This document shows positions 12,503-56,133 of a DNA stretch of 64,000 bases, one piece after another. A program made the position numbers and the translations under genes. The first letter of the stretch is position 1, and every line of letters begins with the position of its first letter. The notes below the pieces were generated by a model, which did not search any database, was not told the DNA's origin, and worked only from the letters and a program-made list of their open reading frames with translations. Origin of the DNA: Eledone cirrhosa (taxonomy: Eukaryota); the NCBI GenBank assembly GCA_964016885.1, contig OZ024742.1, positions 196,354,001 to 196,418,000 on the forward strand, given 5' to 3'.

Positions 12503-12996
12503 CAGAATTAATAATAGAACACACTCACTGTTTGGTTGGTTTTCGCTTCTCGCTGTCTTTTATATCTGCAATCTAACTTACTCGGTCCTCAATGTTGCCA
12601 TTGACTGACCGGCGGTCAAAAATAATACAGATACAATATAGACACAAACACATATATATAGTTTACATAATTTACATAAATCTTTCGTTGCACATCAGCA
12701 ACATCGTCAGTGGTGTTATATTTTTTCCTCCTGTTGTGTTGTATGTCTACGCCATTTTTTTTATTCAGGAGGAAAAAATATAACACCACTGACGATGTTG
12801 CAGATGTGCAACGAAAGATTTATGTAAATTATGTAAACTATATATATGTGTTTGTGTCTATATTGTATCTGTATTATTTTTGACCGTCGGTCAGTCAATG
12901 GCAACATTGAGGACCGAGTAAGTTAGATCGCAGATATGAAAGACAGCGAGAAGCGAAAACCAACCAAACAGTGAGTGTGTTCTGTTATTAATTCTG
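12503..12996. repeat. Long inverted repeat (about 231-bp arms, 32-nt spacer) with a hammerhead core
   Basis: 12503-12733 is the reverse complement of 12766-12996 with few mismatches; CTGACGA-T-GTTGCA-gatg-TGCAAC-GAAA at 12789-12816. Confidence 0.9.
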
Positions 12997-13012
12997 ACTC
13001 TTTTCCTCATGT

Positions 13013-13806
13013 GCATCATCATCACCGTTTTCCATCCGTTCTTCCACGCTAGCATGAGTTAGACGGGTTGTCCTGTTGTGGGCAGTGTCTGGTCGGCTGA
13101 CCATGCCTTGCTCATACAGGAACTGATTTGGCTTGATTTCTACAGCTGGATGCCCTTCCTAACACCAACCTCATTTACAGTGAGTGCTGGGTGCTTTTTT
13201 GCCGTGGCACCTCCACGATCACCTTGCAGTGGGGAGTGTGGGGGCATATTGTCTATATGCTTCAGCTTGTACCCAAGGGAGGTCGGGTACTCTGTATTAC
13301 TGCGTGACGCCAGAGGTTACGGTCGTGTGTCATTGCTTTGAGAGGTGTAATTGGGTAAGGTCGGCTTTTATCACCTCATCCCAGGTCATCTCCCCACTCC
13401 GCGGTTTCCATCGACTTCTAGTGCTCTACACCTTTTTATGCAGCTGTCATCCTTCATACGCATCACATGTCCATACCAGCGTAACCGCCTCTCCTGCACG
13501 CAGCATTTGATTCCTCTTATGCTCAGTCTCTCTCTCAATTCATTTATGCTTTGTCGTTCACGTATATTACTGTTACACATCCATCGGAGCATGCAGGCTT
13601 CGTTTCTCTCTAATCTACGTAAGTCTTCCACCTTCAGCGCCCAGGTCTCACTACCATGCAACATTGTTGTTCGGATACACGCATCATACAGTCTGCCTTT
13701 CATTCTGAGGGAGAAGCCTTTTGCAGCTCGCAGTGGCAGTAGTTCCCTAAACTTCTTCCATCCCGTTCTTACCCTAGTTATTGTACTTTCTGAACACCCA
13801 CTACCT
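13013..13806 (-). mobile_element. RTE family C 3' fragment
   Basis: ORF 13386..13811 plus 3' UTR and (GAT)n tail. Confidence 0.92.
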
Positions 13807-14195
13807 CGCATGTATGTATATATTTATAGTATTGGTGCTCTGAAATAACAATGCATATATGAATCTATATATAGTATATTTACTCATATACTGTATGTTT
13901 ATCTAAAAACATTTTCAAGGCCATTCGCTATGAATTTTAAAGCGGAGTGGAGTAATCGACGGTCACCGTTTCTCACTTGTAAGTGATTGATAAGACTACA
14001 TACCCCTTCGCTTCTACTGCGATTTATAGAAGCTGGATTCTTATAGAATTCCATATATATAATCCTATATATAACCAAAAGTTTCTATGGTTCGTTGATT
14101 ATTCAACAAATACAATTTTACAATAGATTAGAAGCACCCGACAGAAATTTATTTGGAGTATTTAATATTATTCAAAATATTAATAAACGAAAAAT

Positions 14196-14420
14196 ATTCT
14201 CATCACCAAAATATATATTTTATTCTACATATTTCAAAGGTACAATGGTGTTTCAGTACGTTTTCATCAGATAAAATATATGAGAGATTGGATATGCGAC
14301 ATACTTTAGCGGTATGTCGCATATCCAATCTCTCATATATTTTATCTGATGAAAGCGTACTGAAAAACCATTGTACCTTTGAAATATGTATAATATAATA
14401 TATATTTTGGTTATGAGAAT
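14196..14420. repeat. Palindrome (about 109-bp arms, 7-nt loop) carrying family H1 hammerhead motifs
   Basis: Centre gatatgcgacatac-tttagcg-gtatgtcgcatatc; CTGATGA at 14346, GAAA at 14381. Confidence 0.9.
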
Positions 14421-14905
14421 CATCATCATCATCATCATCATCAGGTTTAGCGTCCGTGTTCCACGCTTGCATGGGTTTGGATGGGGGTTTTCCCACTTGA
14501 GGCAAGAGTGGTTGTCTTGCTCGCATAGGACTGTCTGGCGGGTTTTCTACAGTTGGATGCCCTTCCTAACACCAACCACATTTACAGTGTGGGGCTGGGA
14601 GGTTTTTACCGTGTTGCCTACACGGCCACATTACAGCGTGGACTGTCTGGCGGGTTTTCTACAGCTGGATGCCCTTCCTAACACCAACCACATTTACAGT
14701 GTGGGGCTGGGAGGTTTTTACCATGTTGCCTACACGGCCACATTTACAGCGTGGACTGTGTGTTTTTTTGTCGTGACACCTACACGATCTCATTTGTTTC
14801 GGCCTGGATGTTGTGGGACCAACATAACTGTACATTGAAAGGGGCGGTGTGGATGGGGTGGAGGGACGGGGGGGGTGTTTTGATAGAGATGCCTACTGAT
14901 ATTCT
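14421..14905 (-). mobile_element. RTE family B 3' UTR with internal duplication
   Basis: The ggactgtctggcgggttttctacag...cctacacggccacat block occurs twice (14529 and 14640). Confidence 0.88.
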
Positions 14906-14934
14906 AAACATATATATATAAACATATAGACACA

Positions 14935-15792
14935 ACGGAGGTGGGTGCTCAGAAAGTACAATAACTAGGGTAAGAACGGGATGGAAGAAGTTTAGGGAAC
15001 TACTACCACTGCTAGCTGCAAAAGGCTTCTCCCTCAGAATGAAAGGCAGACTGTATGATGCGTGTATCCGAACAGCGATGTTGCATGGTAGTGAGACCTG
15101 GGCGCTGAAGGTGGAAGACCTACGTAGATTAGAGAGAAACGAAGCCTGCATGCTCCGATGGATGTGTAACAGTAATATACGTGAACGACAAAGCATAAAG
15201 GAATTGAGAGAGAGACTGAGCATAAGAGGAATCAAATGCTGCGTGCAGGAGAGGCGGTTACGCTGGTATGGACATGTGATGCGTATGAAGGATGACAGCT
15301 GCATAAAAAGGTGCAGAGCACTAGAAGTTGATGGAAACCGCGGAGTGGGGAGACCCAAGATGACTTGGGATGAGGTGATAAAAGCCGACCTTACCCAACT
15401 ACACCTCTCAAAGTCAATGACACACGACCGTGACTTCTGGCGTCACGCAGTAATACAGGGTACCCGACCTCCCATGGGTACATGCTGAAGCATATAAACA
15501 ATATGCCCCCCTCCCCCCCACCGCAAGGTGGTCGTGGAGGTGCCACGGCAAAAAAGCACCCAGCCCACACTGTAAAGTGGACGTGTAGGCGCCACGAAAA
15601 AGCACCCAGCACTCACTGTAAATGAGGTTGGTGTTAGGAAGGGCATCCAGCTGTAGAAATCAAGCCAGATCAGTTCCTGTATGAGCAAGGCATGGTCAGC
15701 CGACCAGACACTGCCCACAACAGGACAACCCGTCTAACCCATGCTAGCGTGGAAGAACGGACGTAAAACGGTGATGATGATGATGATGATGA
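14935..15792 (+). mobile_element. RTE family C 3' fragment, young
   Basis: Intact ORF 15039..15488; 3' UTR; (GAT)n tail; nearly identical to the inverted copy at 33351-34018. Confidence 0.93.
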
Positions 15793-54086: not shown

Positions 54087-54172
54087 TATATATAATAAAA
54101 AGTCAGGACCCCAACGGCTGAGCTCTTACCATTCCAACAGCTAGTTCCAGACTTTATAATATAACCATACTT

Positions 54173-55003
54173 TACTACCCCAAGTATTGAGTACTCTGTT
54201 GAGTAATGGTCTAACCAGTTTCAAACTGAATCCATCCTGATATATATATAAAATTAGTCCTTCATCAGTGATCTTCCAACCATCATTGGTATTTCTCCGC
54301 ATTAAAGATCATATACCTCTGGTTGGTGCAAGCAATAACTGAAACAAGTTATTGGGACACGTAAAATAGGGTGAAGCGAGTGAGACATGTAAACAAACAG
54401 AGATGGTAATGCAATGGACAGAGAGGAAGAGGAGAAACAAGTCCGTGATATCTGTGGACTTAAGTTCGATCAAATCATAGACGAGGAGAGACACAGACCA
54501 TCCGAGCCGAGAGAGATGTAAGCGAGAAAAGGATTTCACACAGGTCAAACGGGAGGAAGTGAGAGAGGGGGAGTAGCAGAGAGTGAGTGAGTGAAAGTGT
54601 AAGGAAGAGGCCAGCTGAGAGAGAGAGTGACTGGCAGAGGGGGTAAAACGAAGGTGAGAGATACAGAGAAAGGGGAAGCAGTAAGAAAGAAACAGACAGG
54701 TCACAGCAGAGGGAAAGTTCACAGATATCACGGACTTGTTTCTCCTCTTCCTCTCTTTCCGTTACATTACCATCTCTGTTTGTTTACATGTCTCGCTCGC
54801 TTCACCCTATTTTACGTGTCCCAATAACTTGTTTCAGTTATTGCTTGCACCAACCAGAGGTATATGATCTTTAATGCGGAGAAATACCAATGATGGTTGG
54901 AAGATCACTGATGAAGGACTAATTTTATATATATATCAGGATGGATTCAGTTTGAAACTGGTTAGACCATTACTCAACAGAGTACTCAATACTTAGGGTA
55001 GTA
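54173..55003. repeat. Long inverted repeat (about 289-bp arms, about 250-nt GA-rich spacer) with a hammerhead-like core
   Basis: 54173-54461 versus 54715-55003; CTGATGA-A-GGACT...AGTTT-GAAA-CTGG-TT at 54908-54963. Confidence 0.9.
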
Positions 55004-55012
55004 GTGTGGGTA

Positions 55013-55129
55013 ATAGGAGAAAGTATGACCCCAACGGCAGAGCTCAAGCCGTTTCAATGGCTATTTCTGGACTAGAAATAGCCGTTGAAACGCCTTCAGC
55101 TCTGCCGTCGGGGTCATACTTTCTCCTAT
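55013..55129. repeat. GC-rich palindrome related to the 46.3-kb inner hairpin and the 54.10-kb half copy
   Basis: taggagaaagtatgacccc...ggggtcatactttctccta. Confidence 0.9.
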
Positions 55130-55161
55130 ATATATATATATATATATATATATATATATAT

Positions 55162-55588
55162 ATAAAATATTAAACAAATAATGAATAAAACAATGAAACA
55201 GTTCCTTATATTAAACAAAAAAAGTTCATTATTTAACGATCGTTTCTAGGATATATATGTGTTAGAATTGGCATGCATATTCAACAGATCTATGTACAAA
55301 ATTATACAAAATTATACAAACTATCAAGATTAAATATACATACCAAACACACATATATGCCGTCTTCAGAAATATTATTTCTGAAGACGGCATATATGTG
55401 TGTTTGGTATGTATATTTAATCTTGATAGTTTGTATAATTTTGTATAATTTTGTACATAGATCTGTTGAATATGCATGCCAATTCTAACACATATATATT
55501 CTAGAAACGATCGTTAAATAATGAACTTTTTTTGTTTAATATAAGGAACTGTTTCATTGTTTTATTCATTATTTGTTTAATATTTTAT
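55162..55588. repeat. 427-bp near-perfect palindrome, 213-bp arms, 1-nt centre at 55375
   Basis: Direct reverse-complement match with one arm mismatch seen; mirror ORFs 55262..55477 (-) and 55273..55488 (+). Confidence 0.97.
55374..55522 (+). ncRNA. Type I hammerhead ribozyme candidate with a very long stem II (family H2)
   Basis: AUUAUUU CUGAAGA [116 nt, self-complementary] GAAA CGAUCG UU AAAUAAU; 7-bp stem I; palindromic loop III. Confidence 0.65.
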
Positions 55589-55846
55589 CTTGACTCTGTA
55601 TTCCGTTTATCTTTCACCGAAAGTGATTTTTCATTACATCTCTTCTTTCCATGATATCCGGAATACATTGAGTTCTTCATACGGATTGGACACTACCGTA
55701 AACTCTTGGTAGATTTATCTACATATATATATATATATATATATATATATAAGCAAAGAGATATTTAATTTGTTGGTAATTCAATAAATATATTTATAAC
55801 AGATTTGAAACACTCAACAGGTTTTCTGGAGTGTAATATCAATGAT

Positions 55847-56133
55847 ATTAATAAATGGAAACTATATTTATAAAACCATATTTATTCTATTATATATATT
55901 TCAAGGGTACCAAAAACTTTGGTACGCTCATCAGATAAAATACAAAATTTGTTTTATAAATAGTGACTATCCAAATGGAACCTGAACTGTTATGGTCCGA
56001 TTCCTGGGTATGTCACTATTTATAAAACAAATTTTGTATATTATCTGATGAGAGCAAACCAAAGATTTTGGTACCCTTGAAATATATAATAGAATAAATA
56101 TGGTTTTATAAATATAGTTGCCATTTATTTAAT
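55847..56133. repeat. Palindrome with family H1 hammerhead motifs in both arms
   Basis: Arms 55847-55967 and 56012-56133; minus-strand motif at 55883-55942, plus-strand motif at 56037-56096. Confidence 0.88.

Follow-up and report, generated by a model that had tools for sequence, protein, structure and literature searches.

Insertions of Penelope-like elements (PLEs) are described as lying in (TA)n, with a tail on only one of their ends and an inverted, 5'-truncated copy beside the 5' end (PMC8557442; statements on cited sources refer, here and below, to the parts of each that were covered), and head-to-head inverted pseudo-long terminal repeats (pseudo-LTRs) with palindromic junctions have been reported for them (PMC3846280). 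Minimal hammerheads in dual arrangement, on opposite strands and separated by 100-700 bp, are known as well, their stem II being preceded by an extra base and their helix III palindromic (PMC4209133). How PLEs form their inverted repeats and one-sided tails has been called open (PMC8557442). Here we analysed 64,000 nucleotides of Eledone cirrhosa DNA (assembly GCA_964016885.1, contig OZ024742.1, positions 196,354,001 to 196,418,000 of the forward strand; the window), in which palindromes bear a hammerhead-like core on each arm. Loci are named by their position in kb within the window (12.5, 14.2, 54.2, 55.2, 55.8 and so on). The palindromes are most likely head-to-head leftovers of short Penelope-type elements, an already described kind. 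Each feature of the recurring design matches published PLE insertion anatomy, so that the design itself is already published for PLEs, and the novelty lies in junction evidence on the question that the field calls open.

Head-to-head arms, two 3' ends and their joints

The first-pass annotation of the window had reported long inverted repeats, in four sequence families, with a hammerhead core reading outward in each arm. We confirmed five inverted repeats at these places, with a hammerhead-like CTGANGA core reading outward on both arms in 5/5 and an identity of 88-99.5% between the two arms of a locus (Table 1). The proposal that the 55.2 axis, at 55375, lies inside the 5' strand of stem I was correct, the axis being 6 nt before the core. 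Among 20 local inverted repeats surveyed in the window, five had outward cores, one had an inward core and 14 had no core; at the shuffled core density of 0.206 per kb, the probability of a core in at least 4 of 10 hand-picked independent palindrome units is about 4e-5. The 5' ends vary, the distance from core to arm start being about 6, 23, 34, 50 and 190-450 nt across loci, and the axis of the 14.2/55.8 family differs at every locus. The loop of 54.2 is purine-rich and appears to be part of the left arm. No trustworthy editing-like skew was seen among the 37 arm mismatches (12 A/G, 9 C/T and 16 transversions).

Each family has two types of 3' end, short and long, the long one bearing a tail of 75-134 nt (at 12.5 probably of 40 nt). 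Extra 3' sequence was present on one arm at all five named loci, and most loci pair one short-end arm with one long-end arm. Three arms of the 55.2 family stop matching at the same base (9532, 55162 and 55588), and the right arm of 55.2 continues for 134 nt to the next (TA)n; this continuation is a family repeat in all four sequencing runs described below, with read depth continuing over 55589-55711. The left arms of 55.8 and 14.2 have a common tail of about 92-105 nt, absent from their right arms, and the left arm of 54.2 is about 75 nt longer than the right one, the extra part matching the 46.3 and 55.07 hairpins and hence being family sequence.

The insertion at 12.2 kb, of the 14.2/55.8 family, is head to head without being a palindrome. 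Its left arm (minus strand) has the short 3' end at 12143, the best hammerhead, at 12237, and about 80 nt of upstream sequence, and its right arm (12318-12414, plus strand) consists of the family tail only (74 identical positions, 17 mismatches and 9 gaps; score 83 against a shuffle maximum of 43). The two arms do not overlap: the tail-only arm starts where the other ends (family position 55846 versus 55845). This locus and those at 9532-9745, 55013-55129 and 46313-46427 are same-family variants that were absent from the first-pass list.

Four of the 20 sequencing runs listed (X1, X4, X18 and X19) were compared with 55376-55990, which holds one arm from each of two families. In this comparison a fold-back appears as a strand change in the reads, and the orientation of a joint is not given by the method; the libraries are not known to be amplification-free. 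A strand-change joint exactly at 55376 was found in three of the four runs (one contig in X4, 10 reads with three starts in X18 and 9 reads with five starts in X19; none in X1). The X18 and X19 raw reads come from another study and the X4 contig from another sample. The 10 and 9 joint reads, which may all derive from this one locus, compare with a depth of about 360-380 at the arm start, and 350 and 323 reads run across the ends of the compared stretch. A further strand-change joint, 55453|55590, was carried by 72 and 26 reads of two samples, with one start each and none in X1 or X4, 55590 being 2 nt beyond the 55.2 short end. The side of this joint that is 26 letters long has the length of the interval between the GCATGC site at 55474, at which the reads start, and 55453, and we therefore infer a head-to-head orientation, with a minus-strand arm cut at 55453 and a tail starting 2 nt past the short end. 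This joint places the same non-overlap pattern in the 55.2 family at another locus. Another axis joint was seen at 55379|55386, and joints without orientation were found near the 55.8 short end (55836|55845, 87 and 77 reads; 55844|55853, 7 and 1).

In X1 the summed contig depth, which is not a copy number, ranged from 9e4 to 9e5 over the 55.2 arm and reached 3e6 in the 55.8 family, compared with 6-14 for single listed contigs. The minimum over the 55.2 arm was at its 5' end, a pattern that 5'-truncated retrocopies should give. One X4 contig reaches about 750 nt beyond the 55.8 hammerhead on its upstream side, and the left arm of 54.2 holds about 450 nt of upstream sequence. The palindromes are unlikely to be artefacts, because the 55376 joint occurs in reads of another study, the arms differ by substitutions and the ends are asymmetric.

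Table 1. Positions, arms and ends of the head-to-head insertions and related copies in the window
Feature	Extent (strand)	Arms (identity)	Loop	Hammerhead cores	Ends and other remarks
12.5 palindrome	12463-12996	12503-12733 / 12766-12996 (226/231)	32 nt	12710(-), 12789(+)	40 nt between left arm and (TA)n, tail by position only
14.2 palindrome	14053-14420	14196-14304 / 14312-14420 (104/109)	7 nt	14346(+) complete, 14270(-) without U16.1	left arm reaches family tail (to about 14053); right end adjoins (CAT)n end of LINE-associated repeat
54.2 palindrome	54090-55013	54148-54461 / 54715-55027 in the alignment (300 identical, 12 mismatches, 3 gaps; 315 columns)	253 nt	54268(-), 54908(+)	tail of about 75 nt, left arm only
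55.2 palindrome	55162-55722	55162-55374 / 55376-55588 (212/213)	1 nt	55369(-), 55381(+)	134-nt tail 55589-55722, right arm only; (TA)n both sides
55.8 palindrome, same family as 14.2 and 12.2	55752-56136	55844-55982 / 55994-56136 (128 identical, 9 mismatches, 8 gaps; 145 columns)		55934(-), 56045(+)	92-nt tail 55752-55843 on left arm, next to (TA)n; right arm stops at short end beside (CT)n
12.2 non-palindromic head-to-head insertion, 14.2/55.8 family	12143-12416				(TA)n both sides
Single-arm copy of 55.2	9532-9745 (-)	(99% to 55.2)			same short 3' end; (TA)n-type repeat both sides
55.07 hairpin of two 54.2-type tail copies	55013-55129	(score 46, shuffle maximum 28)	5 nt	none	ends in (TA)n
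46.3 hairpin of 54.2-type tail	46223-46487	hairpin 46313-46427		none	inside (TA)n
Older inverted repeat	46484-46951	arms match 3' part of 54.2 family		no CTGANGA core	

Probable Penelope-like origin and proposed formation of the arms

The families are high-copy repeats flanked by (TA)n; their 5' ends vary, and a hammerhead-like motif lies close to the 3' end. Long (TA)n is present at one or both outer ends of 9.6, 12.2, 12.5, 46.3, 55.07, 55.2 and 55.8, and 14.2 and 54.2 have short TA runs only. The inverted 5'-truncated head-to-head copy, the tail at one end and the bias to (TA)n or AT-rich targets, all parts of PLE anatomy, are thus found here, and a type I hammerhead near the 3' end, another PLE trait, is found in full form in the 14.2/55.8/12.2 family only. 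The endonuclease-bearing (EN+) PLEs with inverted pseudo-LTRs (Penelope/Poseidon, Neptune, Hydra, Naiad; PMC8557442, PMC3846280) are alike in the head-to-head 5'-truncated copy, the palindromic junctions, the one-end tail, the strong 5' truncation and the (TA)n targets. They differ in that here no open reading frame (ORF) lies between the arms and no partial tandem occurs in the window, and in that their tails measure 30-40 nt, against 75-134 nt here in three families. A PLE origin thus appears well supported by anatomy and by published papers, although no autonomous partner element was found; membership rests on anatomy because the families could not be linked to a PLE protein. The four families appear to be uncatalogued within what could be searched. 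Six-frame translation of arms, loops and tails gave nothing recognisable by eye, and inspection by eye of a small portion of the PMC8557442 consensus file, with the 3' ends of Octopus Naiads, gave no match to the named families. Active Penelope families in Octopus vulgaris are listed in PMC13282606, the part covered containing no mention of hammerheads or palindromes.

The first-pass annotation had called these units PLE or retrozyme-like. The PLE half agrees with the published anatomy, and no tandem retrozyme organisation was found in the window. Animal non-LTR retrozymes (PMC7229834; bioRxiv 10.64898/2026.07.22.740005) are alike in being ORF-less, a few hundred bases long, and in having a type I hammerhead and a link to PLE pseudo-LTRs. 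Retrozymes, however, are head-to-tail tandems giving circular RNAs, whereas the copies described here are single or head to head and known from DNA alone. Neither head-to-tail tandem units nor partial head-to-tail tandems forming pseudo-LTRs were found in the window, and no joint going back over a whole unit was present among the 15 of 17 joints listed (repeat letters skipped). Miniature inverted-repeat transposable elements (MITEs) and Foldback DNA transposons were rejected on the basis of the asymmetric ends, the varying axes, the single arms and the absence of a visible fixed duplication.

We consider it probable that the palindromes are 3'-end insertions of PLEs, made mainly by twin priming at a cut (TA)n target with the complementary DNAs (cDNAs) joined head to head. 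A PLE reverse transcriptase/GIY-YIG protein encoded elsewhere would bind the RNA and nick both strands of (TA)n, one nick priming cDNA synthesis at a long start site and the other at a short start site. Synthesis of each cDNA would break off at a point that varies, or run to the 5' end of the RNA, and the two unfinished cDNAs would be joined head to head. When both cDNAs pass the hammerhead, a palindrome with one hammerhead per strand would result (55.2, 55.8, 14.2, 54.2 and probably 12.5); when one of them halts at the short site, abutting and non-overlapping arms would be left, as at 12.2 kb; and when both cover the tail only, both from the long site, the product would be a hairpin without hammerhead, as at 55.07 and 46.3 kb. 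With AT-rich DNA as its substrate, a purified PLE protein was shown to cut both strands and to extend them, beginning at two internal start sites that delimit a tail (PMC11167929), and the non-overlapping arms fit this in vitro two-site extension on both strands. In LINE-1 (of the long interspersed nuclear elements, LINEs) twin priming gives inversion junctions that are abutting, deleted or duplicated (10.1101/2024.08.27.596794). The likeness is that two target ends each prime a cDNA and that the arms abut, leave a gap or overlap; the second LINE-1 primer anneals at chance internal sites, whereas the second start appears fixed here, with an overlap that can reach 100-300 nt and then yields full palindromes. 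No paper applying twin priming to PLEs was found, subscription-only reviews lying outside the literature searched.

The formation by snap-back during reverse transcription that had been proposed first is contradicted as a general cause. Snap-back copies only what the first cDNA holds and therefore cannot make arms that share no sequence, so that the one-sided tails together with the non-overlapping arms (12143-12416 and the joint 55453|55590) speak against it; for some events, such as 46223-46487, it may hold. Head-to-head arms that meet at the short start site without overlapping thus distinguish snap-back from twin priming. In full, this first idea, which is close to published proposals, keeps the PLE origin and has the second arm made by self-priming, the cDNA or an antisense template folding back and copying itself, and the one-sided tail left by nuclease resolution. 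This we regard as unlikely, although several observations are on its side. Arms within a locus are far more alike (88-99.5%) than the 14.2, 55.8 and 12.2 loci are to one another (about 70-84%), the loops of 55.2, 55.07 and 14.2 are tiny (1, 5 and 7 nt), and at 46223-46487 the flank outside the (TA)n forms an inverted duplication of about 30 bp free of mismatches (the hairpin arms differing at 9/56 positions, several at CpG), a locus that favours fold-back in at least some events. Head-to-head PLE palindromes have been attributed to self-priming (PMC3846280), the tail has been ascribed to endonuclease resolution (PMC8557442), and inverted duplications from small hairpins are described at LINE-1 insertion sites (10.1101/2024.12.14.628481). 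Self-priming, however, cannot yield the two cases of arms without common sequence, and a high arm identity is also expected from one RNA or a young subfamily, the unlinked copy at 9532 being 99% identical to the 55.2 arms.

That the palindrome itself is mobile, as a foldback, MITE-like or retrozyme-like unit with a fixed axis and perhaps an antisense arm controlling the ribozyme, seems improbable to us. The recurrence of the 55376 axis in 3/4 runs (3 and 5 read starts), the coincidence of the single-arm end at 9745 with it and the nearly identical axis of the 55.07 and 46.3 tail hairpins would fit such a unit, but the joint reads are few against the depth, though palindromes may be under-sampled in such libraries, and they may all stem from this one locus; other axes (55379|55386, 55453|55590), the locus-specific axes of 14.2/55.8 and the asymmetric ends argue in the same direction. 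More improbable still are two independent back-to-back insertions in one microsatellite or an assembly or library artefact, in spite of the great abundance of the families and the clustering of four insertions at 54-56 kb: no (TA)n lies between the arms, the arms of one locus belong to one subfamily and differ by substitutions and tails, and the 55376 joint occurs in reads of another study and in a contig of another sample. For 55.2 the artefact or chance reading is already largely refuted.

Several observations weigh against twin priming of PLE insertions as set out above. The tails of 75-134 nt exceed the published 30-40 nt, the inverted flank duplication at 46223-46487 is predicted by a self-primed fold-back and not by twin priming, and the 55.07 and 46.3 hairpins require two starts at the long end or a fold-back. 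For 55.2, the axis is found repeatedly at one and the same base, with a 1-nt loop and no clear microhomology, and the non-overlapping class consists of one locus in the window and one read joint, the latter with a single start per sample and an inferred orientation. No target-site duplication could be read within the (TA)n. No GIY-YIG match was obtained with Pfam in the 150 of 242 frames scanned, in which LINE domains (RVT_1, endonuclease, zf-RVT and PHD) were found. Two motifs had no match in metagenome contigs, and 11 had none in the Naiad/Chlamys/Hydra consensus file of PMC8557442, in which line breaks can hide matches. Finally, the covariation in the five hammerhead copies from the three loci of the 14.2/55.8/12.2 family was not above that of shuffles (103/500).

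We tentatively suggest, at slightly less than an even chance, that the scars record twin priming at fixed sites, with both target strands primed, one from a long and the other from a short internal start site of the RNA. This single rule would account alike for inverted repeats and tails on one side, for arms without overlap and for hairpins made of tails only. The 55.2 element would then be a young ORF-less passenger of 350 nt whose RNA starts 5-6 nt before the hammerhead, two run-off cDNAs giving a near-perfect palindrome at a recurring axis. If fixed-site twin priming is true, a genome with very many copies makes the rule testable by counting. The repeats are also plentiful perfect hairpins, hence a possible source of double-stranded RNA and of trouble in assembly.

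Hammerhead motifs and their predicted folding

The hammerhead design that had been described as common to all families is present in full in one of them. In the 14.2/55.8 family, with a fifth copy at 12237(-), the motif is a full type I hammerhead with an AU-rich stem I of 7-9 bp, a stem II of about 8 bp that contains a C.C or a bulge, a self-complementary 2-bp stem III and an AUA triplet; at 55934- and 56045+ stem I has 7-9 bp and stem II is bulged. A strict descriptor (stems I and II both of at least 4 bp) was passed by 2/37 CTGANGA sites, 14346+ and 12237-, and by none in 4.15 Mb of shuffles. Over the five copies of this family, 92% of cells were paired and two pairs were changed on both sides. 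The 55.2 motif is a variant in which stem I has 5-7 bp, the self-complementary stem III has 10 nt, the triplet is GUU and stem II is closed by a C.A mismatch, the stem II region of 116 nt being stable (fold z -5.6); its commonest read variants in the 5' strand (55392 A>G and 55398 G>A) still pair with U, as judged by eye. Both boxes are also found in the 12.5 and 54.2 motifs, together with an extra base, a stem II of 5-6 bp and a stem I of no more than 2 bp, i.e. effectively none; in the 12.5 cores the extra base is U and stem II is closed by G-C. No Rfam hammerhead model was present among the 50 and 34 matches at E<=10, and only sub-threshold microRNA-like hairpins were found among the 150 of 346 Rfam matches listed.

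The metazoan PLE minimal type I hammerheads (Cervera and De la Pena 2014, PMC4209133) are alike in the CUGANGA and GAAA boxes, the long stem II, the extra base before stem II (12.5 and 54.2) and the short self-complementary stem III. The 14.2 family differs from them in the length and AU-richness of stem I and in a stem II closed by A-U and not G-C, and 55.2 in the size of the stem II region and its closing mismatch. Without stem I, the 12.5 and 54.2 motifs resemble the 'HHR_core' and 'HHR_half_core' cases listed for Naiads. The start of stem II was found by eye to be alike in 55.2 (55388-55391) and 12.2 (12230-12227(-)), with xGGC followed by AUA and a C opposite C, hinting, as far as the letters go, that these two hammerhead families may be distantly related.

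The first-pass annotation had also held that a read-through transcript would pair the ribozyme with its own antisense and silence it, and that a transcript starting in the loop would leave it active. The former agrees with the folding, in which every tested hammerhead pair of the read-through RNA had a predicted probability of 0.00, so that this RNA would form one long duplex in which the ribozyme does not fold. The latter is not supported for a monomer: in RNA starting in the loop or made from a single arm, the outer stem II was predicted to form (0.84-1.0), but stem I was not (0.00-0.01). Monomers of such motifs have been reported to be inactive (PMC4209133) and such motifs to need protein (PMC11167929), and the missing stem I in the predicted monomer fold agrees with either report. 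For a role of the antisense arm in switching the ribozyme there is no support other than this folding, which was to be expected; since hairpins without hammerhead exist in related families, the paired ribozymes seem to be a by-product and not a switch.

Related copies and the neighbourhood

The 5' end of the single-arm copy (9745) is at the same place as the axis of the 55.2 palindrome, and the tail hairpins at 55.07 and 46.3 share nearly the same axis. A stretch of 14 bases that spans and follows the right end of 12.5 (12993-13006) recurs unchanged where the 46.3 tail hairpin ends (46410-46423). Further short palindromes without a hammerhead core are found at 983-1034, 18325-18422 and 23772-23845; a (TA)n run marks the start of the first two, which may be hairpins made only of the tails of other families. 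In the palindrome at 18.3 kb a 16-nt stretch, including a splice-donor-like motif, was seen by eye to be like the 3' untranslated region of an Octopus Naiad consensus, which may be chance.

At 54090-56136 four insertions of related type stand end to end with only (TA)n or short TA remnants between them, a local insertion hotspot. An open frame of 280 aa at 2577-3419 has a zf-RVT match followed by an apparent restriction-like endonuclease motif, and we take it to be the C-terminus of an R2/R4/Dong-type LINE. Many truncated LINE copies with reverse transcriptase, endonuclease and PHD matches and (CAT)n ends, presumably of RTE type, lie at 13014-17557, 24306-27047, 31793-34675, 37466-38484 and 60432-63502, several of them broken by very long TA/CA microsatellites.

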